Below, piece after piece: positions 1,243 through 51,783 of a DNA stretch of 64,000 nucleotides; within the stretch, counting starts at the first letter, position 1, and each line of letters starts with the position of its first letter. The DNA is from an uncultured virus (IMG/VR IMGVR_UViG_3300037307_000895). Taxonomy: Duplodnaviria; Heunggongvirae; Uroviricota; Caudoviricetes. Location: the IMG/VR virus record IMGVR_UViG_3300037307_000895. One strand, written 5' to 3'. The notes beneath the pieces are model-generated. The model was not told the DNA's origin, searched no databases, and saw only the letters and a program-made list of their open reading frames with translations. A program made the translations under genes and the position numbers.

Positions 1243-1341
1243 ATGTCATACGTTAGCAAACATAAACATTTTAGTAAGTTCCATTTTTGGTTTATCACCA
1301 AGAGTTCAGGAGCTATTGCTGATTTGTTTTATGACGAATAA
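1243..1341 (+). CDS. attenuator leader peptide (His/Phe/Trp-rich)
   Basis: MSYVSKHKHFSKFHFWFITKSSGAIADLFYDE; contains GAGTTCAGG complementary to the terminator 5' arm. Confidence 0.8.
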   Translation: MSYVSKHKHFSKFHFWFITKSSGAIADLFYDE

Positions 1342-1595: not shown

Positions 1596-1686
1596 GGTGT
1601 CGTTGGTCCGAGTGGTCGAAGGAATCTGGCTGTGAACCAGAATGAGTGAACAACAAACAACACGGGTTCGAACCCCGTACGACACC
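1596..1686 (+). tRNA. tRNA-His(GUG), encoded G-1, long variable region
   Basis: GTGTCGT/ACGACAC acceptor, TCTGG-CTGTGAA-CCAGA, TTCGAAC T-loop. Confidence 0.85.
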
Positions 1687-1692
1687 CAAAAT

Positions 1693-2195: not shown

Positions 2196-2918
2196 ATGAG
2201 ATATTTAATAGGCATACAACCAACAGGTAAACTCACAATAGGCAACTATTTAGGTTGTTTAAAGAAGGGTTTGAGGCTTCAGGAAGAAGGTCATGATGTA
2301 ACCTTTTTAATAGCCAACTATCACTCTTTAACTACTGATAGTTACACTGATGTGACTGAACAAGAGTTGAGAAGACTTGGTTGTAAGAATATTAAAAGAC
2401 AGACTCCTGAATATACTGAGTTATTTTTCAAGTTATCTTGTAAATTAAACTTGGGAACATTGTTAAAAATGCCTCAGTATAAAGATAAAAAGGATGATGT
2501 AGAATTTGATTTAGGTTTATTATTATATCCTGTTTTAATGGCAGCTGATATCATAATAAATGACCCTGATGTAGTAATTGTAGGTAAAGATCAAGTGGCT
2601 CACTTAGATTTGTGTAATGACATTTCTAAGAGGTTCAATGGTAAATACTACAAATATGAAATGGGTGATGTTGATAAGATTATGTCTTTAATTGACCCAA
2701 CAAAAAAAATGTCAAAATCTTTGGGTGAAAGGCATGTTCTTTATATCTTTGATGAAAATTATGAGGCGAAGATAAAAAAGGCAAATATGAATGAGGAAGG
2801 AACAGAAAATATAAAAAAGATAGGATTAGGAATTGGAGTAGATGTAGAAAAATATACAATGAATGTAGACTTGAAAAAGGCTATATCAGAAAAAATGAAT
2901 GAATTGTTTAATATATAA
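2196..2918 (+). CDS. trpS: tryptophanyl-tRNA synthetase (compact, 240 aa)
   Basis: GIQPTGKLTIGNYLG (HIGH-like), YPVLMAADI, VGKDQ, KMSKS. Confidence 0.93.
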   Translation: MRYLIGIQPTGKLTIGNYLGCLKKGLRLQEEGHDVTFLIANYHSLTTDSYTDVTEQELRRLGCKNIKRQTPEYTELFFKLSCKLNLGTLLKMPQYKDKKDDVEFDLGLLLYPVLMAADIIINDPDVVIVGKDQVAHLDLCNDISKRFNGKYYKYEMGDVDKIMSLIDPTKKMSKSLGERHVLYIFDENYEAKIKKANMNEEGTENIKKIGLGIGVDVEKYTMNVDLKKAISEKMNELFNI

Positions 2919-2921
2919 TTC

Positions 2922-3275
2922 ATGAAAATTAGAAAGGTATTTGAGTTAGTAGATTATGAGGAAGTAGATTTATGGAGACCGATAGGACAATATTGGAAAA
3001 CTAATGAAATGGATTCCGTGGAAATAAAAAAATTGTGTAAAATTTTTCCACAATTAAGAAAGCCACATGAAAATGAAAAAGGGTTTACGGTTAAAACTAA
3101 ACTCATTTATGATAGTAAGGATGGTAGAGTGGATATAGATATATTAAAAAATGATGATGAATGGTTTTTTGTTAAGGTTATAAAAGGTGATGTGTTATAT
3201 GGTAAAACAAATTACTATAAATGTGACCAATTTGAAGGATTAATAAAATTAATAAAAGAAAAAATTATAAAATGA
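2922..3275 (+). CDS. hypothetical phage protein
   Basis: N-terminus MKIRKVFE; C-terminal YYKCDQFEGL; TAATATATA upstream. Confidence 0.6.
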   Translation: MKIRKVFELVDYEEVDLWRPIGQYWKTNEMDSVEIKKLCKIFPQLRKPHENEKGFTVKTKLIYDSKDGRVDIDILKNDDEWFFVKVIKGDVLYGKTNYYKCDQFEGLIKLIKEKIIK

Positions 3276-3331
3276 CAAACATTAAAAACATAAAGAAAAC
3301 TAAAAAACGAATACGAGTGGTTCGATGGTAA
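3272..3331 (+). CDS. attenuator leader peptide (Lys-rich)
   Basis: MTNIKNIKKTKKRIRVVRW; ATGA overlap with the upstream stop; GAGTGGTTCG pairs with the terminator arm. Confidence 0.75.
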   Translation: MTNIKNIKKTKKRIRVVRW

Positions 3332-3393: not shown

Positions 3394-3487
3394 GCTCTCG
3401 TTCGCTTAGTCAGATCCAAAGCAGCTGGCTTTTAACCAGCAGAGGTAACCAAGTCCTCGACCGTAGGTTTGAATCCTACCGGGAGCA
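3394..3487 (+). tRNA. tRNA-Lys(UUU) with long variable arm
   Basis: GCTCTCG/CGGGAGC, GCTGG-CTTTTAA-CCAGC, GAGG/CCTC variable stem. Confidence 0.8.
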
Positions 3488-3497
3488 CAAAACATAT

Positions 3498-3571
3498 TCC
3501 CCCGTAGCAAACAGGTTGTATTGCAACGGTCTTTTAAACCGTAGGGTCTGGTTCAATTCCAGACGGGGGAA
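3498..3571 (+). tRNA. tRNA-Lys(UUU)
   Basis: TCCCCCG/CGGGGGA, ACGGT-CTTTTAA-ACCGT. Confidence 0.9.
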
Positions 3572-3572
3572 C

Positions 3573-3660
3573 TAATCTAGGAGTTGTGGGTTCGAGTCCC
3601 ACCAGGCCCACAAATTTTTTAAAATGGGCTTGTAACTCAACTGGCAGAGTACTAGACTTT
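3573..3660 (+). tRNA. circularly permuted tRNA, probably Lys(UUU): 3' half 3573-3610, 5' half 3626-3660
   Basis: Joined halves give GGGCTTG/CAGGCCC, ACTC/GAGT, CTAGA-CTTT|TAA-TCTAG and GTGGG-TTCGAGT-CCCAC. Confidence 0.75.
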
Positions 3661-3732
3661 GGATTCATATGATAATGGTTAGTCAATTCGGCTCTTACCC
3701 GAAGAGTCTCGGTTCGAATCCGAGTGGATCCA
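3661..3732 (+). tRNA. tRNA-Lys(CUU)
   Basis: GGATTCA/TGGATCC, TTCGG-CTCTTAC-CCGAA. Confidence 0.88.
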
Positions 3733-3771
3733 CTGTTGTATAGGTAGAGTGCCTTTCTTAATATATAGTAT

Positions 3772-8953: not shown

Positions 8954-9019
8954 ATGAAAATTAGAAATACAAATACAAGTTCGTCACGTAGTTCAAACAG
9001 CTCGAAGATTCGAAGTTGA
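8954..9019 (+). CDS. attenuator leader peptide (Ser/Arg-rich)
   Basis: MKIRNTNTSSSRSSNSSKIRS; AGATTCGA complementary to the terminator arm. Confidence 0.8.
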   Translation: MKIRNTNTSSSRSSNSSKIRS

Positions 9020-9090: not shown

Positions 9091-9163
9091 GGTTCCATCG
9101 TTCAACTGGATAGGACTTCGGACTACGAATCCGATAATGAGAGTTCAAATCTCTCTGGAACTT
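9091..9163 (+). tRNA. tRNA-Arg(ACG)
   Basis: GGTTCCA/TGGAACT, TCGGA-CTACGAA-TCCGA. Confidence 0.9.
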
Positions 9164-9168
9164 CAAAT

Positions 9169-9256
9169 GGAGGGACGCAGTAGACAGAGCTACCCCGTCT
9201 TGAAAACGGCTAGGACGTAATCATCCGTCGTAAGGGTTGGACTCCCTTTCCCTCCG
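9169..9256 (+). tRNA. tRNA-Ser(UGA), atypical D/T loops
   Basis: GGAGGGA/TCCCTCC, CCGT-CTTGAAA-ACGG, long variable arm. Confidence 0.7.
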
Positions 9257-9302
9257 CACTTTGGGTTGTAGGTGACTTCGGGCCATAAGGAACCTTCAAT
9301 AA

Positions 9303-9391
9303 GGAGAGGTGGCAGAGTTAGGTTTATTGCACCGGTCTTGAAAACCGGAGGCCCTTAGCGGGGCCCGTGGGTTCGAATCCCACCCTCTCCT
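9303..9391 (+). tRNA. tRNA-Ser(UGA)
   Basis: GGAGAGG/CCTCTCC, CCGGT-CTTGAAA-ACCGG. Confidence 0.92.
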
Positions 9392-9398
9392 CAAAAAT

Positions 9399-9474
9399 GT
9401 TCCCGTATCAGCCTAGTCTTCGAAACTAGAAACTGTAATGGATGAAAATGTGGGTTCGACCCCCACCGGGAATT
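9399..9474 (+). tRNA. tRNA-Arg(UCG)-like, rearranged D-arm
   Basis: GTTCCCG/CGGGAAT, CTAGT-CTTCGAA-ACTAG; D-loop-like TAATGG lies after the anticodon arm. Confidence 0.65.
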
Positions 9475-9480
9475 CAAAAT

Positions 9481-9715
9481 ATTCAGGTAGTTTAACGGAT
9501 AAAACAGTCCTAAAACGTACGGATAGTCTTGAAGAAAGACGGGTTTTAACTTGCTACCGGAGGCATTCAATTTATGGTTGTGTATCAACTGTTGTAAGTC
9601 CAAAGGGTGTGAGGTTCGATCTGAATGGTTTACGGATGCACTGAGAAACACTCAGGAAGCGCGTTTCCAAGGACGATTTGTAAAACTTTTGTGGGTTCGA
9701 TTTCCATCCTGAATA
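9481..9715 (+). ncRNA. tRNA scaffold with ~158-nt insert in the anticodon loop
   Basis: ATTCAGG/CCTGAAT, D-arm GTTT/AAAC, GTCCT..insert..AGGAC, T-arm GTGGG-TTCGATT-TCCAT. Confidence 0.6.
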
Positions 9716-9721
9716 CAAATT

Positions 9722-9806
9722 GGAAGATTGTCAGAGTGGTCTATTGTACTTCTTTGCTAAAGAAGCGGGTGTAACAGCCCCACAGGTTCGAATCCTGTAT
9801 CTTCCG
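9722..9806 (+). tRNA. tRNA-Ser(GCU)
   Basis: GGAAGAT/ATCTTCC, CTTCT-TTGCTAA-AGAAG. Confidence 0.9.
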
Positions 9807-9815
9807 CATAAAATT

Positions 9816-9906
9816 GGAAGTGTACCCAATGTTGGCAAAGGGGACGGTTTGCTAAACCGTTAGGTCGGTTAATCCCGGCGAGTGGGGTCGGCACCCACCA
9901 CTTCCG
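9816..9906 (+). tRNA. tRNA-Ser(GCU)
   Basis: GGAAGTG/CACTTCC, ACGGT-TTGCTAA-ACCGT, variant T-loop. Confidence 0.8.
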
Positions 9907-9911
9907 CAAAT

Positions 9912-10000
9912 GGTGGGATACCCAAGTGGTTATAAGGGGCTTGCTTGGAAAGCAAGTAGGTCGTTAATTCGGCGCATGGGTTCGAATCCCATTCTCACCG
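9912..10000 (+). tRNA. tRNA-Ser(GGA)
   Basis: GGTGGGA/TCTCACC, CTTGC-TTGGAAA-GCAAG. Confidence 0.9.
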
Positions 10001-10015
10001 CTAAAAAATAAAATT

Positions 10016-15646: not shown

Positions 15647-18118
15647 TTATTTTATTTTCACATTAAGTGATAGGTTTATAGTTCTTTCTTGGCGATTATT
15701 CATCAAAGGTAATTCTCTATCTTTTTGATAGAACTTCATATTTTGACCTAATATATTTCCAAGTGATAACTTAAATTCAAAATTATTATTTAATTTATAA
15801 ATTGTTGTTATATCAATTATATCTCTTGAATTTTCATAAATATCTGAATATCCCTGAAATCCAACTAATGATATTCTTTCTCCGGTTCTATTATAAGAAA
15901 TGGTTGAAGATAATTTTCTATAATTAAAAGAAGATGCGATATTAATATTATAAGGAGATTGTCCTTGTAAAGGTCTATTTCCAGTTTCGGTTTTAACATT
16001 TGAATAAATTAAAGAAACATTTGAATATAGTGTCATCCATTTAAAAACATTCTTTCTAAAATCTAATTCTCCACCAAATAAAATAGCACTCTTTGAATTT
16101 TTATAACTTAATAATAAATTAGAAGGAACAGATCCAGCATCTACAATCATTTCTATTGGATTGTCGAATTGTTTACCAAATAATCCAAATGAAAATGTTT
16201 CAGAATTACTAATATTCTTCTCCCACTTCATATCAACATTTGAAATATTTGCGATGGTTAAATTAGGATTGCCTATAATTTGTGCATTTCTAACGAAGTC
16301 ATAATAAGTGAAATTAGATATTTCTCTTAATTCTGGTCTAGAAACGCTTCTACTAGCTGAAAATCTTATTTTATTCTTTTCAGTTATCATATATGATAAG
16401 TTAATAGAAGGTAATAATGACGGATAATTATTTTTTACAATAACATCACTACCACCAAAGTCAGAAGTTTCTACTCCGAAAGAATTATATTCAAATCTTA
16501 ACCCACCATTAAACTTCCACTTATTTAAGCTTTTATCATACATTACATAAGAAGACATAGTATAAAAATTAGCAGAATATCTATCGGTATTATTTGTTAT
16601 CTCTTCTAATAAATCTTTAGATTGATATCTAAATACTCTTGCTTGAAAATATCTATTCTTATTTAAATAAGAAACACCTGTTTTAAATCCACGATTTTCA
16701 TAATTTAATGTGCCATTAAATCCACTTTCATACATTGTGCTCCAAAATCTATAACTATCTCTCCAAACAGTACTAAATGTGTCCGTTGTTCCTATAGATC
16801 TCTGTAAAGGATTTATTCTGTAATCTGGTTGATCTCTGGTAATAACATTATATCCTATTGTACCATTGATATTATCTTTTTTGAAATCGATTAGTGAGTT
16901 AAATAATAGTTTATTAACTGTATTAGAAGATTGTAATCTAACATCTTGTAAATTATCATAGTTTTCTCCAGTTCTATTGATAAAGGAATTTTCTGAATTA
17001 TAATTGAATATATTTTTCCAATTTAACTTAATTCCTTTATTATAAGATAAATTTAATAATCCATTAATAGAATAAGATTGAACATAACCAGTGTCATTAT
17101 AATTATATGCCAATTCATTAGGTGAGAAATATTCTAATCTATTGGAATAAATTACAGAATTATTCCTAGAAGAGGATACACTAAATATTGAAGAAACATC
17201 TCCTATTCTTTGTGATCCATTTAAATTCAAATTTAAATTTGGATATGTATTTAAAGAATATGAATTTGGATTTGATATTAAAGTTGTATAAGTCTTTCTA
17301 TCAGAAATGTCAGAAGATTTAAATTTTTGAGTAGAGGGAAAATTATTAGGAAAATTTACTGATTTAACTGATTCAAAATTTTCATTAAATAGTAGATTAT
17401 TAGTCCCTATTAAAGCACTTAAGTTTAAAGAATTTACATATGTTGATTTTGTAGTTAATTGTACTAAACCACCAGAAAAATCTCCCGGCAAATTAGCTGA
17501 TGGTGATTTTATAACAATAACATTATCGATTATTGAATTCGGTATAATGTCATATGAAAAAGTTCTTCTATCTGGCTCAGTTGATGGTAATAATCCCCCA
17601 TCCATCATTGATAAATTATATCTGTCTGCCAATCCTCTAACGACAATAAACTTATCATCTTGAACTGTGATTCCACTAATTCTTCTTAAAGATTCTCCCA
17701 TATTTCTATCCGGAGTCTTTTTTATAGTCTCAATAGAAATACCATCGGATACTGAAGATGAATTTCTAATGGTTGATATAACCGATGTTACTGTTTCTTT
17801 TTTGTATGTACCCTTTACTTCTACAGCATTTAAAGTAGAAACCTTTTTATCCAAATTAAAGATGATTGTAGTATCTGATTTTATGTTTAACACCTGTTTA
17901 AAATCAAAAGTTGAAATGTGTGTTATTGAAATTGTATTTGTTCCTTTTACTAAATTTATTTGGAATTTTCCATTGGAATCTGATAATACATACGATTTAT
18001 TTAAAATAATAGCTGCCCCTTCTAGTGGCTTTCCCTCCGACTCAACTACACCATTCAATACTTGACCTTGTACCAAAAATGAAGTAATTAAAAGCCACAA
18101 TGTTAATAATATTCTCAT
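15647..18118 (-). CDS. TonB-dependent receptor
   Basis: Signal peptide, carboxypeptidase-like N domain, plug (VRGLADRYN), GNPNL, beta-barrel. Confidence 0.9.
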   Translation of the reverse strand: MRILLTLWLLITSFLVQGQVLNGVVESEGKPLEGAAIILNKSYVLSDSNGKFQINLVKGTNTISITHISTFDFKQVLNIKSDTTIIFNLDKKVSTLNAVEVKGTYKKETVTSVISTIRNSSSVSDGISIETIKKTPDRNMGESLRRISGITVQDDKFIVVRGLADRYNLSMMDGGLLPSTEPDRRTFSYDIIPNSIIDNVIVIKSPSANLPGDFSGGLVQLTTKSTYVNSLNLSALIGTNNLLFNENFESVKSVNFPNNFPSTQKFKSSDISDRKTYTTLISNPNSYSLNTYPNLNLNLNGSQRIGDVSSIFSVSSSRNNSVIYSNRLEYFSPNELAYNYNDTGYVQSYSINGLLNLSYNKGIKLNWKNIFNYNSENSFINRTGENYDNLQDVRLQSSNTVNKLLFNSLIDFKKDNINGTIGYNVITRDQPDYRINPLQRSIGTTDTFSTVWRDSYRFWSTMYESGFNGTLNYENRGFKTGVSYLNKNRYFQARVFRYQSKDLLEEITNNTDRYSANFYTMSSYVMYDKSLNKWKFNGGLRFEYNSFGVETSDFGGSDVIVKNNYPSLLPSINLSYMITEKNKIRFSASRSVSRPELREISNFTYYDFVRNAQIIGNPNLTIANISNVDMKWEKNISNSETFSFGLFGKQFDNPIEMIVDAGSVPSNLLLSYKNSKSAILFGGELDFRKNVFKWMTLYSNVSLIYSNVKTETGNRPLQGQSPYNINIASSFNYRKLSSTISYNRTGERISLVGFQGYSDIYENSRDIIDITTIYKLNNNFEFKLSLGNILGQNMKFYQKDRELPLMNNRQERTINLSLNVKIK

Positions 18119-21322: not shown

Positions 21323-21354
21323 TTTGGTGGTTTAAAAAAGTCATCGTATCTTTG
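21323..21354 (+). promoter_or_regulatory. Bacteroidetes-type promoter of the Tyr/Glu tRNA operon
   Basis: TTTG-N20-TATCTTTG. Confidence 0.75.
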
Positions 21355-21372: not shown

Positions 21373-21468
21373 ATGAACAACAGAATAGAAATATCAGTTA
21401 ACGGAGCTTCTTATGAAGCTTATTATTATGAGGAGGAAACTCGCTCAGTTGAACTGGCATTTCTATAA
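21373..21468 (+). CDS. attenuator leader peptide (Tyr/Glu-rich)
   Basis: MNNRIEISVNGASYEAYYYEEETRSVELAFL; AGTTGAACTGG pairs with the terminator arm. Confidence 0.85.
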   Translation: MNNRIEISVNGASYEAYYYEEETRSVELAFL

Positions 21469-21525: not shown

Positions 21526-21607
21526 GGGTCAATCGCATAGCGGCAATTGCTGGGGACTGTAAATCCCCTCTCTTCGGAGTTCGTAGGTTCGAGTCCTACT
21601 TGGCCCA
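21526..21607 (+). tRNA. tRNA-Tyr(GUA)
   Basis: GGGGA-CTGTAAA-TCCCC, canonical. Confidence 0.92.
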
Positions 21608-21615
21608 CACAATTT

Positions 21616-21688
21616 GGTCCTGTCGTCTAATGGTTTAGGACGCGTCCCTTTCACGGATGAAATGCGGGTTCGATTCCCGTCAGGACTA
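21616..21688 (+). tRNA. tRNA-Glu(UUC)
   Basis: CGTCC-CTTTCAC-GGATG. Confidence 0.92.
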
Positions 21689-21697
21689 CAATTATAT

Positions 21698-21779
21698 GGA
21701 TTGTTAGCAAAGCGGCAAAGTCGGGTGGTTGTAACCCACCTCCCTTCGGGGTCCGTAGGTTCGAGTCCTACACAATCCA
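21698..21779 (+). tRNA. tRNA-Tyr(GUA)
   Basis: GGTGG-TTGTAAC-CCACC. Confidence 0.88.
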
Positions 21780-21787
21780 CAACAAAT

Positions 21788-21859
21788 GGTCCTGTCGGCT
21801 AATGGCTAGGCTATCTGATTTTCACTCAGAAGATGCGGGTTCGATCCCCGTCGGGACTA
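21788..21859 (+). tRNA. tRNA-Glu(UUC)
   Basis: TCTGA-TTTTCAC-TCAGA. Confidence 0.88.
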
Positions 21860-21867
21860 CAAAATAT

Positions 21868-21953
21868 GGGAGTATAACGCCAGCGGCACGTAAGCCGCCC
21901 CTAATCAAACAGGCGTACGGAAGGTAAGTATGGTTCAAATCCTGCTACTCCCA
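21868..21953 (+). tRNA. tRNA-like RNA, rearranged D-arm, 6-nt loop containing GTA
   Basis: GGGAGTA/TACTCCC; ACGCC/GGCGT helix enclosing GCGGC-ACGTAA-GCCGC. Confidence 0.55.
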
Positions 21954-21959
21954 CAAAAT

Positions 21960-22044
21960 GTCACGGTATGCAAATTGGTTAAGCGACCAGACTTTCAATC
22001 TGGGAACCGAATGGTTCGTGCGGGTTCGAACCCCGTCCGTGATA
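21960..22044 (+). tRNA. tRNA-Glu(UUC) with long variable arm
   Basis: CCAGA-CTTTCAA-TCTGG; GAACC/GGTTC variable stem. Confidence 0.85.
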
Positions 22045-22051
22045 CTAAAAC

Positions 22052-23752: not shown

Positions 23753-23784
23753 TTTGGTGGTTTAAAAAAGTCATCATATCTTTG
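23753..23784 (+). promoter_or_regulatory. Bacteroidetes-type promoter of the Ile/Gly/Ala tRNA operon
   Basis: TTTG-N20-TATCTTTG. Confidence 0.75.
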
Positions 23785-23801: not shown

Positions 23802-23873
23802 ATGAAACAAATTAATAACATATCAGCGATAGCACAAATAGGGGGAGGCGCCGGCGCGTCGTCTTGTGGCTGA
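23802..23873 (+). CDS. attenuator leader peptide (Ile(ATA)/Ala/Gly-rich)
   Basis: MKQINNISAIAQIGGGAGASSCG; TGTGGCTG pairs with CAGTCACA. Confidence 0.8.
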   Translation: MKQINNISAIAQIGGGAGASSCG

Positions 23874-29967: not shown

Positions 29968-29999
29968 TTTGGTAAATAAAAATAACTTATTTATCTTTG
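29968..29999 (+). promoter_or_regulatory. Bacteroidetes-type promoter
   Basis: TTTG-N20-TATCTTTG directly before tRNA-Gly; no leader or terminator. Confidence 0.7.
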
Positions 30000-30010
30000 T
30001 TTAAAATCAA

Positions 30011-30083
30011 GCGGAAGTAGCTCATTTGGTAGAGCACCGTCCTTCCAAGTCGGGGGTGGCCGGTTCGAGCCCGGTCTTCCGCT
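30011..30083 (+). tRNA. tRNA-Gly(UCC)
   Basis: GCGGAAG/CTTCCGC, CTTCCAA loop. Confidence 0.9.
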
Positions 30084-30182
30084 CAAAAATGGATTTGCAA
30101 CCCATTTATTTTTAATAACATATCATTTTTCTTTGTCAAAAGGAGGATAAAAAATTTCAAAGAAATTTGAAAAAAAAGAAAA

Positions 30183-30995
30183 ATGTATATGAAACAGAAA
30201 GACTCACTTGGCGATCGTATGAAATTTTACGAATCGCAAACCTGTGTGGAAAGATTACTTCCACTAATTCCAATTGTTGCCAGACTTGATGGTAAAGGAT
30301 TTTCTAAATTCACTAAAGGTTTGAAAAGACCTTATGATGAAAGACTGTCTAATCTGATGGTTGAAACCACTAAATACTTGGTTAAAGAAACCAACGCAAA
30401 CTGTGGTTATACTCAATCTGATGAAATTACTCTTGTTTGGTATTCTGAAGATCTCGAATCTCAAGTTTACTTCGATGGTAGAATTATGAAGATGGTTTCA
30501 GACCTAGCATCTATGTGCTCTGTCTTTTTCAACTCTAAACTGCCAGAATATCTTCCTGAAAAGTCAGATAAACTTCCAAGATTCGATTGTAGAGTATTCA
30601 GTGTTCCAACTCTAACTGAAGCAGTTAATGCTTTTTATTGGAGAGAAAAAGATGCTACCAAGAACTCTATTTCCATGTCTGCTCAATCTTTTTATTCTCA
30701 CAAGGAATTGATGAATAAAAACAGTGGTGAAAAACAAGAAATGCTTTTTCAAAAAGGTGTTAATTGGAATGATTATCCTTCTTTCTTCAAAAGAGGAACT
30801 TATGTTCAACGAAAGAGAGTGTTGACTAAATTTAGCGACGAAGAACTATCTAAACTTCCACCTAAACACAATGCTAGAAAAGATCCTGATTTTGTTGTTG
30901 AAAGATGGGTTATTGATAGAGTAAATCTACCACCACTATCAAAAATTAAGAATCAAGTAGATGTAATCATCTATGGAAAAGATCCGATTGAATAG
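30183..30995 (+). CDS. thg1: tRNA-His guanylyltransferase / Thg1-like protein
   Basis: ARLDGKGFSKFT, YTQSDEITL, FDGR..K, FDCR, WREKDA.KNS. Confidence 0.92.
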   Translation: MYMKQKDSLGDRMKFYESQTCVERLLPLIPIVARLDGKGFSKFTKGLKRPYDERLSNLMVETTKYLVKETNANCGYTQSDEITLVWYSEDLESQVYFDGRIMKMVSDLASMCSVFFNSKLPEYLPEKSDKLPRFDCRVFSVPTLTEAVNAFYWREKDATKNSISMSAQSFYSHKELMNKNSGEKQEMLFQKGVNWNDYPSFFKRGTYVQRKRVLTKFSDEELSKLPPKHNARKDPDFVVERWVIDRVNLPPLSKIKNQVDVIIYGKDPIE

Positions 30996-33551: not shown

Positions 33552-35483
33552 ATGAGGAAAATTATTTTATCTATTTTCACATTAATTTCTATCAGTACAT
33601 ACTCACAAACAGATACATCTAAAGTTGTTCAACTTGAAAATGTATCTGTTATGGGTATTAGAAGTGATAGAAAAACTCCAATATCTCAAAAAATAGTAAC
33701 CAAAAAACAAATTGAAAGAACCTATCAAGGTCAAGAAGTACCTATTCTTATAATGGAAAAAACTCCATCTGTTACATCATATATGGATGGTGGTCACCCA
33801 CAAGGATATACATACTTTAGGCTACGTGGTATTGACCAAACAAGGATTAATATGACACTTGATGGGGTTCCATTAAATGAACCCGAAGATCAAGGTGTTT
33901 ATACATCTAATTATCCAGGATTCACAAACTTTATTCAATCAATGCAAGTTCAAAGGGGAGTTGGTACTTCTACTAATGGTGTTGCGTCATATGGGGGTTC
34001 AATAAATTTTGTTACTAAATCAGGTTTTGAAAAAGAATCTGAAATTGCATTAGGATATGGATCTTTTAATACTATGAGATTCAATTTCTCAAATGGAACA
34101 GGTTTAAGTAAAAAGAATTTTGCTCTTTACACCAATTTATCTCTATATCAAACTGATGGGTATAGGTATAATTCTGGTGGAGATGGTGGATCTATATTTA
34201 TTAGTGGAGGTAAATATGGTGACAAAGATATCATTAAATTTTCTGCATTTAGTGGCATATCAAGAAACGGAATGGCTTGGCTTGGTGTATCTGAGGAAGA
34301 TATAAAAATAGATAAAAAAACAAATTATAATCAAAATGATGCTTGGGATGATTTTAGACAAACATTTACTCAAGGGAAATGGATAAGGAAAATAAATAGT
34401 AAAAGTAAATTCTCTACTGGATTATTTTATAATCGTTTAGACGGTTCTTATGACTATTTCATGAGTGGAAATCGATCTTTGTTTTTAGGATCCAACTTCT
34501 TTGGTTTAATCAATAATTATCAGTATAAAAGTAAAAACTTTAAATTTGATGCGGGGTTAAATATAAATACATATAATCGTGATCACAAAAATATTGAAGC
34601 CGACTATAAAAATAAAGGATTTAGAAATGAATTAAGCATTTTTTCTAAATTAAGTTATGATATTAGTAAATTTACTCTATTTACGGATCTTCAATATAGA
34701 TATAGTGATTTTTCATATGAAGGTGATGTCTCAATGGACAAACTAAAGTGGAATTTCTTTAATCCTAAATTCGGCATAGTTTATAATAAAAATAGTTATA
34801 TGAACTATTATTTTTCTATTGGAAAAACAGGTAGAGAACCAACCAGAACAAACTTATTTGGTGGATCAGATAATTTAACAACTTTAGAAAATGTATCACC
34901 CGAATCAGTAATCGATTATGAATTGGGCTTTAATAGGCGTCTGGAAAAATCGAATATACAAGCCAACTTATATTATATGGATTTCGAAAATGAAATAACT
35001 TTATTAGGTGCTATAGGAACTAATTCGCTACCTTTGATGACAAATGTTAGTAAAAGTTTTAGAAGTGGGATTGAACTGGATTATACAAGAACATCTGCTT
35101 TTGATATCATGTCAACCACTACAACTATAAACTACTCATTTAATAGAATTATAGATGGTGATACTAAATTTCAACCTCTATATACACCCGATTTAATAAT
35201 TAGTCAATCACTTGGTTTTAATTTTCATAAAATATTTCTTGAGGGAAACTTTAGATATAATAGCAAATCATATATCAGTTTAGATAATAAATATTCTATT
35301 CCTGACTTTGTAGTATTTGGAGCAAATGTGAGATATGATTATAAAAAATGGTCAGTATTAGGCCAATTAAATAATATTTTTAGTAATAATTACTACACAA
35401 TGGGATATGTAGTTGATAATGTAAAGTACTTATACACCAATGCTCCTGTTAGTTTTTACATAACAATAAAAAGGAAAATATGA
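33552..35483 (+). CDS. TonB-dependent receptor (vitamin/nucleoside uptake type)
   Basis: RLRGIDQTRINMTLDGVPLNEPE, QVQRGVGTSTNG plug; adjacent to pnuC. Confidence 0.9.
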   Translation: MRKIILSIFTLISISTYSQTDTSKVVQLENVSVMGIRSDRKTPISQKIVTKKQIERTYQGQEVPILIMEKTPSVTSYMDGGHPQGYTYFRLRGIDQTRINMTLDGVPLNEPEDQGVYTSNYPGFTNFIQSMQVQRGVGTSTNGVASYGGSINFVTKSGFEKESEIALGYGSFNTMRFNFSNGTGLSKKNFALYTNLSLYQTDGYRYNSGGDGGSIFISGGKYGDKDIIKFSAFSGISRNGMAWLGVSEEDIKIDKKTNYNQNDAWDDFRQTFTQGKWIRKINSKSKFSTGLFYNRLDGSYDYFMSGNRSLFLGSNFFGLINNYQYKSKNFKFDAGLNINTYNRDHKNIEADYKNKGFRNELSIFSKLSYDISKFTLFTDLQYRYSDFSYEGDVSMDKLKWNFFNPKFGIVYNKNSYMNYYFSIGKTGREPTRTNLFGGSDNLTTLENVSPESVIDYELGFNRRLEKSNIQANLYYMDFENEITLLGAIGTNSLPLMTNVSKSFRSGIELDYTRTSAFDIMSTTTTINYSFNRIIDGDTKFQPLYTPDLIISQSLGFNFHKIFLEGNFRYNSKSYISLDNKYSIPDFVVFGANVRYDYKKWSVLGQLNNIFSNNYYTMGYVVDNVKYLYTNAPVSFYITIKRKI

Positions 35484-41006: not shown

Positions 41007-41234
41007 ATGAAAAAGTTACTAGAGTTAATTGAACAACTCAAAATGGCCGAAAAAGAACAAAAAGAATTCTCTCAAATTGTTCGTAGAAAAATAAAAGGTA
41101 AATATGACCACAATAAACACCAAGCTTATATGGCGATTTACAATCACTATGGAATGAGAGAGAGATATGAAAAAATCAGAAATCTTAAACAAAAAATAAA
41201 TCAACTTCGTTTAAGATACTGGTATTGGGAATAA
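41007..41234 (+). CDS. hypothetical protein
   Basis: ORF track. Confidence 0.5.
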   Translation: MKKLLELIEQLKMAEKEQKEFSQIVRRKIKGKYDHNKHQAYMAIYNHYGMRERYEKIRNLKQKINQLRLRYWYWE

Positions 41235-41240
41235 AAAATA

Positions 41241-41272
41241 TTTGGTAGAAATAAAAAAAGTTTCTATCTTTG
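41241..41272 (+). promoter_or_regulatory. Bacteroidetes-type promoter of the large tRNA operon
   Basis: TTTG-N20-TATCTTTG; TAATATATA at ~41316. Confidence 0.75.
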
Positions 41273-41344
41273 TGTAACAAATCTCAAAAAAGATAAAAAG
41301 AGAGATTAAACTTTTAATATATAACAATATATAATAAACTAATT

Positions 41345-41458
41345 ATGAAACTGAATAACAGAAATATGACGATTATGAACCTCAATATGGTGGTGATTAC
41401 ATTATGTAATAGAACCTCATATCCGGGTTTTGCTCATATTCCTGATATTATTGTATAA
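41345..41458 (+). CDS. attenuator leader peptide (Leu/Asn/Arg/Met/Thr/Ile/Val/Cys)
   Basis: MKLNNRNMTIMNLNMVVITLCNRTSYPGFAHIPDIIV; TCCGGGTTT pairs with AGACCCGGA. Confidence 0.8.
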   Translation: MKLNNRNMTIMNLNMVVITLCNRTSYPGFAHIPDIIV

Positions 41459-41479
41459 TAGTTGTTGGAAGTAGTAGTA

Positions 41480-41510
41480 AAGACCCGGAACCAAAAGTTT
41501 CGGGTTTTTT
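41480..41510 (+). terminator. intrinsic terminator (attenuator)
   Basis: AAGACCCGGAAC..GTTTCGGGTTTT plus T tract. Confidence 0.85.
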
Positions 41511-41516
41511 ATTTAT

Positions 41517-41600
41517 GGCTCTGTGGCGAAATTGGTACGCGTCAGACTTAAAATCTGATGGACTGAAAAGTCCGTGTCGGTTCGACCCCGACCAGAGCCA
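41517..41600 (+). tRNA. tRNA-Leu(UAA)
   Basis: TCAGA-CTTAAAA-TCTGA. Confidence 0.92.
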
Positions 41601-41609
41601 CAACAAATT

Positions 41610-41697
41610 GGCTGAGTGGTGGAAGTAAACATGGTAGACACACTAGTCTTAGAAACTAGTACCGAAAGGTGTGAGGGTTCGAGTCCCTCCTTGGTCA
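41610..41697 (+). tRNA. tRNA-Leu(UAG)
   Basis: CTAGT-CTTAGAA-ACTAG. Confidence 0.88.
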
Positions 41698-41709
41698 CAA
41701 CAAAAATAA

Positions 41710-41788
41710 GCCTCCGTAGTCGAGTGTGCCTTCTAAGCATTTAATCGTAACGGAACTGAAAATGTGGGTTCGAATCCCACCGGAGGTT
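41710..41788 (+). tRNA. tRNA-Arg(UCU)-like, rearranged D-arm
   Basis: GCCTCCG/CGGAGGT, GTGC-CTTCTAA-GCAT, CGA/TCG followed by TAACGG. Confidence 0.65.
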
Positions 41789-41793
41789 CAAAT

Positions 41794-41878
41794 GGATGGG
41801 TTGCTTTAGAGGCCGAAAAGTCTGGGCTGTTAACCCAGTGTCGCAAGACCGCCGTGGGTTCGAATCCCACCCCATCCT
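41794..41878 (+). tRNA. tRNA-Asn(GUU), long variable arm
   Basis: CTGGG-CTGTTAA-CCCAG. Confidence 0.85.
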
Positions 41879-41883
41879 CACAT

Positions 41884-41957
41884 TGGAATGTAGCTCAAAT
41901 GGTTAGAGCGCGAAGCTGATACCTTCGAGGTAGTGGGATCGTTACCCGCCATTCCAA
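41884..41957 (+). tRNA. tRNA-Ile(GAU)
   Basis: CGAAG-CTGATAC-CTTCG; variant T-loop. Confidence 0.82.
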
Positions 41958-41959
41958 CA

Positions 41960-42050
41960 AGGGAAAAAATAAAAGAAGAGATAGAAAAATGTGTCTTAGT
42001 GTGTTCTAATTGTCATAGAGAGATACATTACGGTATAATTGATATAGAAA
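41960..42050 (+). pseudogene. HNH endonuclease C-terminal remnant
   Basis: Spacer translates REKIKEEIEKCVLVCSNCHREIH. Confidence 0.6.
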
Positions 42051-42131
42051 CGGCGTGTAACCCTCAATCCTGATAAGATTGCTACGGGTAATTGGTAAGT
42101 GAAAATGCAGGTTCGATTCCTGTCACGCCGA
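42051..42131 (+). tRNA. tRNA-Ile(GAU)-like, rearranged D-arm
   Basis: CGGCGTG/CACGCCG, CAATC-CTGATAA-GATTG, ACCC/GGGT followed by AATTGGTA. Confidence 0.68.
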
Positions 42132-42137
42132 CAAAAT

Positions 42138-42223
42138 TGATCGGTGGCCCGAGTGGCGAAGGGTCCGGCCTGTTAAGCCGACGTAGTAAAATACCACCGT
42201 GGGTTCGAGTCCCACCCGATCAG
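42138..42223 (+). tRNA. tRNA-Asn(GUU), long variable arm
   Basis: CGGC-CTGTTAA-GCCG. Confidence 0.85.
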
Positions 42224-42229
42224 CAATAA

Positions 42230-42314
42230 GCGCGGATGGTTCGAGTGGTCGAAGACGACAGTCTGCAAAACTGTATCCGAAAGGTCATCGTGAGTTCAAA
42301 TCTCACTCCGCGCT
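42230..42314 (+). tRNA. tRNA-Cys(GCA), long variable arm
   Basis: ACAGT-CTGCAAA-ACTGT, U73. Confidence 0.87.
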
Positions 42315-42320
42315 CAACAA

Positions 42321-42397
42321 GCCTTTGTAGCTTTAACTGGTAGAGCACCTGACTTGTAATCAGGGGGTTGCAGGTTCGAGTCCTGTTGAAGGCTCCA
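42321..42397 (+). tRNA. tRNA-Thr(UGU)
   Basis: CCTGA-CTTGTAA-TCAGG, encoded CCA. Confidence 0.92.
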
Positions 42398-42403
42398 ATA
42401 ATT

Positions 42404-42491
42404 GGGTCTATGGTGTAATGGCTAAACATCCTTCCCTTACAAGGAAGAGACGAGAAGTATGATCTTGGTTCGAATCCAAGTAGACCCACCA
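42404..42491 (+). tRNA. tRNA-Val(UAC), long variable region
   Basis: CTTCC-CTTACAA-GGAAG, encoded CCA. Confidence 0.85.
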
Positions 42492-42496
42492 AAAAT

Positions 42497-42579
42497 GCCG
42501 ATGTGGCTCAGTGGCGACAGCAATGGTTTTGTAAACCATCACCGTAAGGTCATCGGGGGTTCGAGTCCCTCCATCGGCT
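42497..42579 (+). tRNA. tRNA-Thr(UGU), long variable arm
   Basis: ATGGT-TTTGTAA-ACCAT. Confidence 0.85.
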
Positions 42580-42588
42580 CAGAAATAG

Positions 42589-42662
42589 AGTCTCATAGCT
42601 CAGTTTGGGAGAGCGCTTCTGTGACATGGAAGAGGCCACCGGTTCGACCCCGGTTGAGACTA
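42589..42662 (+). tRNA. tRNA-Val(GAC)
   Basis: CTTCT-GTGACAT-GGAAG. Confidence 0.85.
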
Positions 42663-42710
42663 CAAATAGTGATGGTGATGATGTAACCCCATCATCCGGG
42701 TTCATCACTA

Positions 42711-42782
42711 TGGAGAGTAGCTCAGTTGGTAGAGCACCGGACTGATTTCCGGTGGTCGATGGTTCGAGTCCATCCTCTCCAA
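42711..42782 (+). tRNA. tRNA-Ile(GAU)-like with 6-nt anticodon loop
   Basis: CCGGA-CTGATT-TCCGG, otherwise canonical. Confidence 0.6.
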
Positions 42783-42788
42783 CAAATT

Positions 42789-43050
42789 AGGGAAGTAACT
42801 CAGTGGCAGAGTATCCCCAGACATGGGGGGAAAGTCGTTAGGTTCGATTCCAGCCTTCCCTACAAATCAACGGTCTGATCAACTGTTGACTGAATGGTTC
42901 GAAACATTCGATTGATTATGGTGTAAAGGGCACACCCGTTTCGTAGGGAGGTTTAAGGTTCGATTCCTTATTAATCAACAAAGTGGGAGATTAAGGGACA
43001 CACTCTGGGTTAAACCCCAGAAATAGATAGGTTCAACTCCTATCCCCACA
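42789..43050 (+). ncRNA. three tRNA-like elements with undetermined anticodons (42789-42862, 42912-42979, 42983-43050)
   Basis: Acceptor stems and TTC T-loops present; anticodon arms aberrant. Confidence 0.5.
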
Positions 43051-43054
43051 AAAT

Positions 43055-43127
43055 GCCGTAGTCGTATAATGGTTGATTACACGCCGTTGGTATCGGTGAG
43101 ATGGCAGTTCGAATCTGCTCTATGGCT
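43055..43127 (+). tRNA. tRNA-Thr(GGU)
   Basis: CGCCG-TTGGTAT-CGGTG. Confidence 0.88.
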
Positions 43128-43239
43128 CTGTAAGCATGGTAGTTGCCCTTGTTTGACTGAAATAGTTTAACCCGCAGATAAGCTAGAAGTAAGGAAAAAA
43201 CAAAAAATCTACTCGTCACTGCGGGAAGTGACGTTTTAT

Positions 43240-43320
43240 GTCCAGATGATGAAATTGGTAAACATACCGGCATGAGAGGCCGGCGCCAAAAGCTTGTAGG
43301 TTCGAATCCTGCTCTGGGCA
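43240..43320 (+). tRNA. tRNA-Leu(GAG)
   Basis: CCGGC-ATGAGAG-GCCGG. Confidence 0.85.
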
Positions 43321-43321
43321 C

Positions 43322-43476
43322 TGATGTTGTGGCGGAATTAGGTATACGCGGGGGTCTGGTTCGATATGATTGATGTTGGGTAAACTCCAATGTCTTCCAC
43401 TCAAGAACGAAAACCGCCGTCTGATGGATAAGTGGATAATGAAGTCAGATTGTGGGTTCGAGTCCCACCAACACAA
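43322..43476 (+). ncRNA. Leu-like tRNA scaffold with an insert replacing the anticodon loop
   Basis: TGTTG/CAACA, GCG..CGC D-arm, ~55-nt insert, GTCTGA/TCAGAT variable stem, canonical T-arm. Confidence 0.5.
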
Positions 43477-43478
43477 AT

Positions 43479-43561
43479 GGATTTGTGGCGAAATTGGTAG
43501 CACGCGCTAGTCTTAGGAACTAGTACCGAAAGGTGTGAGGGTTCGACCCCCTCCAAATCCA
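43479..43561 (+). tRNA. tRNA-Leu(UAG)
   Basis: CTAGT-CTTAGGA-ACTAG. Confidence 0.92.
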
Positions 43562-43569
43562 CTAAAAAT

Positions 43570-43655
43570 GCCGCTGTGAACCGATGTGGTAATGGTGCCT
43601 CCCTCATAAGGAGGTTGGTTTTATCCTATTGCTGGTTCGAGTCCAGCCAGCGGTA
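43570..43655 (+). tRNA. tRNA-Met/Ile2(CAU), long variable region
   Basis: CCTCC-CTCATAA-GGAGG. Confidence 0.82.
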
Positions 43656-43656
43656 C

Positions 43657-43821
43657 ATGAATATAGACTTAGATAAACAAATTGAACTAACAAAGATTGA
43701 GTTAGATTCTTACAAATCAAATAAGTATTCTGCTAAAGAAATTGTTGATTGGTTAGAATCTGTTTATAAATCTTTATTAGAATTAAAAAGGCTCAATGGC
43801 GAAATTGGGAGTACGCGATAG
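43657..43821 (+). CDS. small hypothetical protein inside the tRNA array
   Basis: MNIDLDKQIELTK...; 3' end overlaps tRNA-Leu. Confidence 0.4.
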   Translation: MNIDLDKQIELTKIELDSYKSNKYSAKEIVDWLESVYKSLLELKRLNGEIGSTR

Positions 43822-43874
43822 ACTCAAAATCTATTGGTAGAAATACCGTGTGGGTTCGATGCCCACTTGAGCCA
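43790..43874 (+). tRNA. tRNA-Leu(CAA)
   Basis: ATAGA-CTCAAAA-TCTAT. Confidence 0.9.
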
Positions 43875-43876
43875 CT

Positions 43877-44098
43877 ATGGTTTATGGTGTTAATAAATGT
43901 TTGTATAAAATAATTGGACTAAATGGTGATAAAAAGGTGGGTACTATAAAAGTAGTAGCACACACCAAATTAGAAGCTTATTATTATTGCAAAGACTTAT
44001 TACCAAAACATAATAAATTCGACTATCATCATATAAAATTTGTTGATTGTGAATGTGGTCCGATTTTAGAAAAAAATGATTTAAAAAGAAAGAAATGA
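43877..44098 (+). CDS. hypothetical protein
   Basis: ORF track; its stop overlaps the asn leader ATG. Confidence 0.5.
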   Translation: MVYGVNKCLYKIIGLNGDKKVGTIKVVAHTKLEAYYYCKDLLPKHNKFDYHHIKFVDCECGPILEKNDLKRKK

Positions 44099-44142
44099 AA
44101 ATGATTGTAAATAACAGGAATAATTTAACAGATTCGGTCTGA
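44095..44142 (+). CDS. attenuator leader peptide (Asn/Arg-AGG)
   Basis: MKMIVNNRNNLTDSV; GTCTGAT pairs with ATCAGAT of the terminator. Confidence 0.78.
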   Translation: MKMIVNNRNNLTDSV

Positions 44143-44172
44143 TTGGATATTCCTTGCTAAAAAATACAAGAT

Positions 44173-44200
44173 AACCCATCAGATTTCTGATGGGTTTTTT
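44173..44200 (+). terminator. intrinsic terminator (attenuator of asnS)
   Basis: AACCCATCAGA-tt-TCTGATGGGTT plus T tract. Confidence 0.85.
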
Positions 44201-44228
44201 ATTTAAAAAAAAATTAAAAATTAAAATT

Positions 44229-45407
44229 ATGAAAGGGTGGATTAAATCAATACGTCAATCAAAAAGCTTGATGTTTATTTCAGTAACAGATGGTGTTAAA
44301 GATCATCAATTAACCTTGAAAGAAGGTGAATATGAACTTGAAGGTGAATTAAAAGTAGGTGCTTCATTTACTGCAGAAGGTTATGACTCTATAACACCGA
44401 AAGGGTTCGAAGAATTTGTAGTATCTAAAATGATAATAATTGGAGAATCAGATGATGAATATCCAATACAACCAAAAAGGCACTCATTTGACTTCCTAAG
44501 AACTATACCTGAATTGAGAGGAAGAACAAAAGGATTTCAATCAACTTGGAAGATAAGACATTACTTATCTCAACTAATTCACCAATTTATGTCTGAAAAG
44601 GGATTTTTTCAATATTGGACACCAATTATAACTCAAGCGGATTGTGAAGGAGCTGGTGAAACATTTACTGTTAAGTCTGATTGGTTAGAAGAAAAATTAA
44701 CAGTTTCAGGCCAACTACATGGTGAAGTAGGAATGATGTCTCTTGGAAAAATCTATACTTTTGGACCTTGTTTTAGAGCGGAAAAGTCTGCTACTAAAAA
44801 ACATTTGTCTGAATTTTGGATGTTAGAGCCTGAAATGGCATTCTATTCTTTAGAAGATACTATTTCTTTTTCCGAGGAAATGTTGAAGTATGTATTAACT
44901 CAAATAGTTAAACATGAAGAAGATTTCAAAAGACTTGAGATTGATACTTCTCATATAACATCTATCATAGATAAAGATTGGGTTAAAATTAGATATGAAG
45001 ATGTTTGTAAAGAATTTAAATTAGATTTTGGAGAAGATGTTTCTTCAGAGATTGAGAAGATGATGATAGATAAATATAAATTGCCTATTTATATTACACA
45101 TTGGCCAAAAGATTTGAAACCATTCTATATGAAAAAGTTTGAAGAATATGCTTATTGTTTTGACTTAATTTTTCCAGAAGTTGGTGAATTGATAGGTGGT
45201 TCTGAAAGAGAAGACTCTTATCAAATTCTGAAAGATGAAATGGAGAAAAGTGGATTAGATATGAGTAAGATGGATTGGTATTTAAAAACAAGAAAGTGGG
45301 GCTCGGTTCCACACTCTGGATTTGGACTTGGTTTTGATAGATTAGTAACATTTGTTTGTAAACTACAAAAGATTCATGATTCGATACCCTTCCCAATAGG
45401 GTATTGA
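44229..45407 (+). CDS. asnS: asparaginyl-tRNA synthetase
   Basis: DCEGAGETF, LTVSGQLHGE, FGPCFRAEKS, HLSEFWMLEPEMAF, GELIGGSERE, PHSGFGLGFDR. Confidence 0.95.
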   Translation: MKGWIKSIRQSKSLMFISVTDGVKDHQLTLKEGEYELEGELKVGASFTAEGYDSITPKGFEEFVVSKMIIIGESDDEYPIQPKRHSFDFLRTIPELRGRTKGFQSTWKIRHYLSQLIHQFMSEKGFFQYWTPIITQADCEGAGETFTVKSDWLEEKLTVSGQLHGEVGMMSLGKIYTFGPCFRAEKSATKKHLSEFWMLEPEMAFYSLEDTISFSEEMLKYVLTQIVKHEEDFKRLEIDTSHITSIIDKDWVKIRYEDVCKEFKLDFGEDVSSEIEKMMIDKYKLPIYITHWPKDLKPFYMKKFEEYAYCFDLIFPEVGELIGGSEREDSYQILKDEMEKSGLDMSKMDWYLKTRKWGSVPHSGFGLGFDRLVTFVCKLQKIHDSIPFPIGY

Positions 45408-51543: not shown

Positions 51544-51783
51544 ATGAAACTATATCCAAAAAAAGACTATAAAAATATGTTTGGTCAAATTATTTGGCAC
51601 AAAGAAAAAATATATGAGTGTTCATTACTATCAGAAAATGAAGATCCACTCAAATCTGATTATGTAGTAACTTGTGAACTCATTGGAAATGAGTATCCTA
51701 TAATGGAAATGTGTGAAATTTTAGAAAAATTTTACCTAGAAAGTGAAATAAGGGATAAAAAAATAAATAATTTTTTGGAATAA
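51544..51783 (+). CDS. hypothetical protein with C-terminal tag
   Basis: IRDKKINNFLE. Confidence 0.5.
   Translation: MKLYPKKDYKNMFGQIIWHKEKIYECSLLSENEDPLKSDYVVTCELIGNEYPIMEMCEILEKFYLESEIRDKKINNFLE

Follow-up and report, generated by a model that had tools for sequence, protein, structure and literature searches.

The question raised by this locus is how a phage that carries many transfer RNA (tRNA) genes controls their expression. We analyzed a stretch of 64,000 nucleotides (nt) from an uncultured virus of the Caudoviricetes (IMG/VR record IMGVR_UViG_3300037307_000895), hereafter the window. The window is AT-rich and contains 40 tRNA genes detected by ARAGORN in several arrays, all on the + strand, and likewise 40 Rfam tRNA matches. 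Upstream of its largest array lies a short open reading frame (ORF) followed by an intrinsic terminator. From its sequence, this element is likely to be a ribosome-mediated (leader-peptide) transcription attenuator that gates at least 18 phage tRNA genes in a negative feedback on tRNA supply (Table 1).

The first-pass annotation of this stretch had proposed a multivalent attenuator, in which codons 3-24 of the leader use only Leu, Asn, Arg(AGA), Met, Thr, Ile(ATT), Val and Cys codons. This restriction holds, and all 22 codons (22/22) can be decoded by the array anticodons under strict wobble rules. In detail, different array tRNAs decode the three Leu codons (CTG, CTC, TTA), and the same is true of the three Thr codons (ACG, ACA, ACC). 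Nine of the next 10 codons beyond the run are outside the permitted set, and the match ends just before TCCGGGTTT, which lies at 41422-41430 in the core of segment 2, as had been stated. The background frequency of the set, taken from all ORFs with 150 or more amino acids (12,982 residues), was 0.426 by amino acid and 0.379 by codon. The probability of the set match, which the annotation had proposed to compute, is the 22nd power of these values, that is, 7e-9 (amino acid) and 5e-10 (codon). Among 307 small ORFs and the whole six-frame translation of the window, 22 was the longest such run, followed by 15, 14, and 14.

The array consists of Leu x5, Asn x2, Ile(GAT) x2, Cys, Thr x3, Val x2, Met(CAT), Arg(TCT), and one gene with a 6-nt anticodon loop. 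ARAGORN with default settings detected 15 genes in 41517-43875 (Leu TAA/GAG/TAG/CAA, Asn x2, Ile GAT, Cys, Thr x3, Val x2, Met CAT, and 42711-42783). Rfam contributed three more above the gathering score, whose anticodons were read by script from the anticodon loops. The tRNA list given earlier, including Leu x5 and Arg(UCU), was thus recovered apart from Ile(GAU), which is present in two copies and not one. That the leader set matches the array "exactly" is not fully established, as about four tRNA-like stretches (42789-42863, 42913-42978, 42984-43051, and ~43330-43470) have no anticodon assigned.

Several oddities of the tRNA genes were also seen. The gene at 42711-42783 has an apparent 6-nt anticodon loop, for which ARAGORN gives a 2-base anticodon, and it has the best Rfam score of the array (66.1 bits). 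The tRNA-like stretch at 42984-43051 also has an apparent 6-nt anticodon loop. Many tRNAs in the window (1597-1687, 3394-3488, 21960-22045, 41794-41879, 42138-42315, 42404-42580, 43570-43656) are 84-95 nt long despite belonging to isotypes with normally short variable arms (His, Lys, Asn, Cys, Val, Thr, Met, Glu). As judged by eye, a variable-region hairpin, in many cases with a GAAA or GCAA loop at its tip, accounts for the added length. Between two tRNAs, one frame of 41959-42050 shows by eye a C-x2-C..H..H motif resembling the C-terminus of an HNH endonuclease, and this interval may be a homing endonuclease remnant.

We folded the leader RNA to see which pairings it allows. The minimum free energy (MFE) structure of the whole leader (-55.4 kcal/mol, z = -4.78) contains a 1:2 pairing (41359-41394/41414-41444) together with the terminator, which alone folds with -16.1 kcal/mol and ends 6 nt ahead of the first tRNA called by ARAGORN. 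When the RNA was folded only up to the 3' arm of the terminator, the MFE structure was a 2:3 antiterminator (41422-41434/41476-41489) occupying the 5' arm of the terminator. In these predicted folds, the 1:2, 2:3, and 3:4 pairings are the four segments of a classical attenuator. The small hairpin on top of the 1:2 structure is possibly a pause hairpin. No other promoter motif was found by the pattern scan between 41273 and 51773, the next being at 51774. No Rfam leader family scored above its gathering score anywhere in the window. The Thr_leader family (RF00506) gave only a sub-threshold match to the terminator region (41436-41514; 21.2 bits vs 55; E = 0.72), and apart from it no T-box or other cis-regulatory family was matched in 41200-44000 at E up to 10.

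We next consider whether this anatomy is conserved. The nearest public records are LR745206.1 and LR756502.1 (635 and 642 kilobases (kb), uncultured phage, unannotated), whose tRNA arrays are syntenic with those of the window; in a search of a phage collection, LR745206.1 matched the window with 77.7% over 3% of 24 kb. A scan of IMG/VR with a degenerate pattern derived from the leader returned 85 loci, of which 12 were kept, each with a homologous leader ahead of a tRNA array. The remaining 73, with neither leader nor tRNAs, were rejected as chance matches. The window, the 12 IMG/VR contigs, and the two public records make up the 15 loci compared below (individual relatives are denoted by L and a number), so that the attenuator-tRNA unit is kept in 14 related huge-phage contigs.

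An intact leader ORF of 34-43 codons was present in all 15 loci with start, stop, and frame kept, and all gaps in alignment columns 1-100, the coding part, were multiples of three. In every locus a run of 19-25 codons for the same eight amino acids ends just ahead of segment 2. The order of residues in the run differs among loci (MNLNMNMNTLT, LTVNMNLNNTMTT, NTTNMMNLTLN) with the permitted set constant. Run codons decodable by the array of their own locus numbered 291 of 340, counting only tRNAs called by ARAGORN with default settings. The T-run ends 51-63 nt past the stop codon in 15/15 loci, and the first tRNA follows the T-run after 2-21 nt in 14/15. Of the 14 relatives whose upstream sequence is complete, 13 have a -7 box within 130 nt upstream of the leader, and by eye the relatives have a comparable upstream hairpin plus words TTTTAATATATA ahead of the ATG.

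The alternative structures are conserved as well. The terminator and a hairpin at the position of 41396-41410 were predicted in the MFE structure of 15/15 loci, and with segment 4 blocked, segment 3 paired with segment 2 in 14/15, L022 being the exception. The 1:2 helix, with its 5' strand in the sensor codons, appears in the MFE structure of the window and most relatives. Its register varies among loci, and MAFFT places the 3-nt indels variably in this helix and in the central hairpin, so column-wise covariation was counted only for the other two helices. The terminator stem occurs as CCCGGAAC, CCCGAAC, CCCAGATTC, CCCTCAG, and CCCTTAG, and segment 2 varies along with it (CCGGGT, TTCGGGT, GAATCTGGGTT, CTGAGGGT), shifting the encoded residues among PG, SG, and EG. 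In the alignment of the 15 loci (A1), 88.7% of the antiterminator cells were paired, with 19 cells changed on both sides at 4 pairs, and slid registers reached at most 58.6%; for the terminator, 99.3% were paired, with 19 cells changed on both sides at 3 pairs, and slid registers reached at most 67.3%. None of 500 shuffles (0/500) was as high for either helix; the shuffle control ignores relatedness, and these figures are to be taken as support and not as probabilities. L060 was left in and scored as unpaired, being one column off in segment 2 of A1, where its own helix is a perfect 11-base-pair (bp) match. The anatomy of the element, its codon-anticodon match, its conservation, and the covariation of both helices are thus plain observations. 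They support the proposal of a multivalent attenuator, as promoter, frame-kept ORF, terminator, and mutually exclusive antiterminator are all present and the same design recurs elsewhere in the window.

The window contains five sister arrays, each with its own leader, antiterminator, and terminator. When the six leaders were paired with the six arrays in all ways, the true pairing was the best, and only 1/720 permutations was as good. The same test gave 1/120 in L002, 1/24 in L065, and 1/6 in L001. In L065, a 281-kb contig, the arrays are combined differently and the leaders are likewise merged; one of its leaders is followed by Gln, Asp, and Pro tRNAs, none of which was called in the window. 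The array of sister leader E has tRNA-like stretches that were read by eye as Ile(TAT), Gly(TCC), and Ala(TGC) and were not called by the tools. Ile is encoded by ATA x3 in leader E, ahead of this Ile(TAT), vs ATT in the leader of the largest array, which has Ile(GAT).

The sister units show further features. Three of their promoters (1178-1209, 21323-21354, and 23753-23784) are near-identical over ~32 nt, TTTGGTGG.TT.AAAAAGTCA.C.TATCTTTG, which suggests a shared regulatory class or recent duplication. Leader B (Lys) has no promoter of its own and is joined to the upstream ORF by an ATGA sequence, in which the leader ATG and the stop codon of that ORF overlap. A 240-amino-acid TrpRS-like ORF (2196-2918) starts 13 nt past the Trp tRNA and probably shares the transcription unit of the His/Phe/Trp leader. 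Its match to trpS (TIGR00233) reached 126.7 bits where the cut-off is 176.75 and was limited to positions 6-224 of the 328 in the profile, so it is truncated or divergent. At 29968-30995, a tRNA-Gly(TCC) lies directly past a promoter motif with no leader, followed by a Thg1-like tRNA-His guanylyltransferase ORF (PF04446, E = 3.6e-32).

A second predicted attenuator stands behind the largest array, ahead of asnS (~44229-45407; TIGR00457, asparagine-tRNA ligase, 392.2 bits vs the cut-off of 342.6). Its leader region folds with z = -4.40, and the leader ATG overlaps the stop of the ORF at 43877-44098. By its sequence, this unit applies the classical attenuation logic to a synthetase in the same genome. 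The pattern scan found no promoter motif from the array promoter to the asnS unit, which makes it possible that the two attenuators work in series.

Table 1. Coordinates of the proposed attenuators, their parts, and the associated tRNA genes. Positions are those of the window except for the last three rows, which refer to contig L065.
Feature	Position	Strand	Remarks
Bacteroidota-type promoter	41241..41272	+	TTTG, 20-nt spacer, -7 box TATCTTTG; transcription start predicted near 41277
5' untranslated leader	41277..41344	+	small hairpin 41280-41285/41302-41307 (MFE fold); A/T-rich stretch ahead of ATG
Leader ORF	41345..41458	+	37 codons plus stop; reads MKLNNRNMTIMNLNMVVITLCNRTSYPGFAHIPDIIV, then stop
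Sensor run, 22 codons (codons 3-24)	41351..41416	+	each codon can be decoded by a tRNA of the array
Segment 1, 5' half of 1:2 anti-antiterminator	41359..41394	+	core GAACCU (41377-41382) pairs with GGGUUU (41425-41430); MFE prediction
Small hairpin AUUACA-UUA-UGUAAU	41396..41410	+	from the I-T-L-C-N codons; top of 1:2 structure
Segment 2	41414..41444	+	pairs with segment 1; 41422-41434 is the antiterminator 5' strand and includes TCCGGGTTT
Segment 3, antiterminator 3' strand	41476..41489	+	overlaps terminator 5' arm; MFE without terminator 3' arm
Intrinsic terminator	41479..41514	+	13-bp stem 41479-41491/41497-41509, loop CAAAA, T-run
tRNA array, regulated cargo (predicted)	41517..43875	+	at least 18 tRNA genes plus ~4 tRNA-like stretches without anticodon
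tRNA Leu TAG	41615-41691	+	Rfam, anticodon loop
tRNA Arg TCT	41710-41788	+	Rfam 32.6 bits, anticodon loop
tRNA Ile GAT, second copy	42051-42131	+	Rfam, anticodon loop
Second attenuator, ahead of asnS	44095..44201	+	Asn-rich 15-codon leader MKMIVNNRNNLTDSV, then stop (44095-44142); terminator 44173-44196
Sister leader A, ..KHKHFSKFHFWF..	1243..1341	+	ahead of His/Phe/Trp array 1597-2183
Sister leader B, ..IKNIKKTKK..	3272..3331	+	ahead of Lys array 3394-3733
Sister leader C, ..TSSSRSSNSS..	8954..9019	+	ahead of Arg(ACG)/Ser array 9091-10001
Sister leader D, ..SYEAYYYEEE..	21373..21468	+	ahead of Tyr/Glu array 21526-22045
Sister leader E, ..ISAIAQIGGGAGA..	23802..23873	+	ahead of Gly/Ala tRNA array
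L065 leader IRSHKHFSKSSKWF			ahead of Phe, His, Lys, Arg(ACG), Ser x3
L065 leader NIACYYEGG			ahead of Ile(TAT), Gly, Glu
L065 leader PVNQPQPQDQD	~2760-2866	-	then terminator and Gln, Asp, Pro tRNAs 2480-2708

The promoter type of the element bears on the likely host. The motif TTTG-N17-23-TAnnTTTG occurs 18 times in the window vs 5.87 expected, and 0/100 shuffles reached 18 in the pattern scan. Two phage-encoded TonB-dependent receptor-like ORFs, 15647-18118 (-) and 33552-35483 (+), have Plug and beta-barrel domains, one of them with a CarboxypepD_reg domain. Both the promoter excess and these receptor-like proteins fit a Bacteroidetes host. In a flavobacterium, the sigma-A -7 box is reported to have the sequence TAnnTTTG and to span -12 to -5 (PMC9723704). 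Genomes of more than 634 kb are reported to fall in the Mahaphage clade, with predicted replication in Bacteroidetes (PMC7162821).

We propose the following mechanism for the array leader. Host RNA polymerase would initiate at the promoter at 41241-41272 and transcribe the 37-codon leader, which is probably translated in coupling with transcription. Fast decoding of the Leu, Asn, Met, Thr, Ile, Val, Cys, and Arg(AGA) codons would let the ribosome trail the polymerase over segment 2; with segment 2 covered, segment 3 would stay free until segment 4 emerges, the terminator stem (41479-41509) would form, and transcription would stop a few bases short of the first tRNA. If any sensor codon is decoded slowly, the ribosome would stall in the run and occupy segment 1, leaving segment 2 (41422-41434) free to pair with 41476-41489, which would block the terminator and allow transcription of the array. 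In the absence of translation, the 1:2 helix and the terminator would form, giving an off state. A shortage of the array tRNAs would then switch the array on and a plentiful supply would switch it off, with a stall on any of the eight tRNA classes sufficing, as in an OR gate. This direction of response is the probable one; since the sensor codons are read by the same tRNAs that the array encodes, it would constitute negative feedback on decoding capacity.

The position of the run can be related to the unwinding of mRNA by the ribosome, which extends up to roughly 11-13 nt beyond the P-site codon on its 3' side. For a ribosome stalled with codon 24 in its A site, unwinding would then reach ~41422, the first base of the antiterminator strand, and this would account for the cognate run ending at precisely that point. 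On the same basis, codons 3-7 are probably too far 5' to open the 1:2 helix.

Several points weigh against this attenuator reading. The Arg tRNA call is weak (32.6 bits), and the array has the ~4 tRNA-like stretches with no assigned anticodon. The permitted set makes up 38-43% of ordinary codon usage, and the other leaders contain 16-40% set codons. Because the set is large, composition alone is weakly specific, and the case rests on the unbroken run, its conservation, and the other leaders. The codons are also few and scattered for each amino acid (Cys x1; Arg, Ile, and Val x2 each), whereas trp, his, and leu leaders have tandem runs of sensor codons. The lone Cys codon TGT forms one arm of the conserved hairpin (ACR-TTA-TGT), and L001 and L002 retain TGT, with no Cys tRNA found in their arrays even under relaxed settings. 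The Cys match, hence at least one of the matches, may for these reasons be structural rather than a matter of sensing. Among the 340 run codons of the 15 loci, 49 have no cognate tRNA in their own array by ARAGORN default calls; part of these misses comes from truncated loci, such as L070 with no more than 1.2 kb of downstream sequence, and from tRNAs that ARAGORN does not call. Finally, if the amino acid and not the tRNA were limiting, extra tRNA would not help.

This last point leads to the alternative that survives best, although we regard it as unlikely: the attenuator is the same, its signal is amino-acid starvation or a general slowing of elongation in the dying host, and the leader times tRNA expression to the stage of infection. 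A stalled ribosome is blind to whether a tRNA is missing or uncharged, and the adjoining asnS attenuator is of the kind that classically reports charging. The natural signal may be tRNA abundance, for example after decay or cleavage of host tRNAs, or it may be charging. Against starvation as the signal, a shortage of amino acids is not relieved by more tRNA. Also, the leaders are partitioned by the isotypes of their own arrays and re-merged with the arrays in L065, as feedback on supply would predict. We take tRNA supply rather than amino-acid supply to be the probable limiting signal.

Much less probable is that the product of the ORF is a small functional peptide whose gene has its own terminator, that the tRNAs are expressed by leaky read-through or from an unrecognized promoter, and that the codon match is a by-product. 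The N-terminal two thirds of the peptide are indeed fairly conserved in the 15 loci, including a V-V-N-x-T-L-C core, but this core coincides with RNA helices, and the C-terminal third is not conserved as peptide, though its RNA pairing covaries with the terminator. A selected peptide would also fit poorly with the shuffled residue order of the run, in which the permitted set is nevertheless kept, and with six unrelated leaders each matching its own array. As for an unrecognized promoter, the 2-21 nt before the first tRNA in 14/15 loci provide no space for one.

Slightly less credible still is a switch that works without the ribosome, in which a protein or tRNA binds the leader RNA directly in a T-box-like or TRAP-like manner. 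The alternative helices in themselves need no translation. Against such direct binding, the start codon, stop codon, and frame are kept in 15/15 loci with in-frame indels, the match is in frame and at the codon level, and 41200-44000 has no cis-regulatory family match at E up to 10 apart from the sub-threshold Thr_leader. A chance match of composition between leader and array, for which the share of the eight amino acids in the proteome (43%) could be cited, is scarcely believable given the probabilities computed above (~7e-9 to 5e-10), the longest run in six frames, and its recurrence in 14 other loci and at 5 other arrays.

Leader-peptide attenuation is textbook knowledge for amino-acid operons, and the reading of the array leader as an attenuator can be compared with known systems. 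The enterobacterial ilvGMEDA, ilvBN, and thr (RF00506) leaders share with the array leader a short leader with codons for several amino acids working as an OR gate, a mutually exclusive terminator and antiterminator, and an anti-antiterminator overlapping the sensor codons, which in the array leader is a predicted one. They sense two or three amino acids and control biosynthetic enzymes, whereas here eight would be sensed and the cargo is tRNA, whose output would feed back on the sensed molecule. The element here is moreover phage-borne with a Bacteroidota-type promoter, and its Thr_leader score is below gathering. For the trp/his/ilv/thr class of attenuators, the usual cargo is genes for amino-acid biosynthesis or aminoacyl-tRNA synthetases; the tRNA cargo departs from this, with no bearing on the mechanism. 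The pheST attenuator of E. coli (pheM leader; phenylalanyl-tRNA synthetase) is alike in attenuating a translation component that serves the sensed codons, but unlike the array leader it is cellular, senses a single amino acid, and has a protein cargo; its direct analogue in the window is the asnS leader at 44095-44201. T-box riboswitches likewise couple tRNA status to terminator read-through ahead of translation-related genes, but they bind uncharged tRNA directly without a ribosome, whereas the array leader keeps an in-frame ORF and has no T-box match.

From the same likely host phylum come leaders in Flavobacterium psychrophilum, for which extracts of PMC9723704 describe clues for leader-peptide attenuation ahead of amino-acid operons. 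The TAnnTTTG sigma-A -7 box and the proposed mechanism are also shared. Those leaders serve host biosynthetic operons, and tRNA genes are not mentioned in these extracts. In full-text searches of the literature we found no account of leader-peptide attenuation controlling tRNA genes or acting in a phage. In the main text of the study on huge phages (PMC7162821), the strings 'attenuat', 'leader', and 'terminator' are absent. The array leader would differ from known leader attenuators in its tRNA cargo, its breadth of eight amino acids, and its phage carrier.

A broader and more tentative idea, to which we give somewhat less than even weight, is that the leaders jointly act as a homeostat by which the phage maintains its whole tRNA pool by codon class. 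About seven sensor ORFs, including the Pro/Gln/Asp leader of L065, would partition the 20 amino acids; each stall would activate the block that relieves it, for Asn also the synthetase, and depletion of host tRNAs or their cleavage by anticodon nucleases would be detected and repaired in real time. If the attenuator reading is true, huge phages would do more than carry spare tRNAs: they would gauge the speed of decoding for each codon class and produce the corresponding tRNA block as needed. This would account for the grouping of tRNA genes by isotype in these phages and would provide a testable link between phage tRNAs and host defences that target tRNA. The leaders would also be available as compact, modular devices that sense decoding capacity at the level of single codons.

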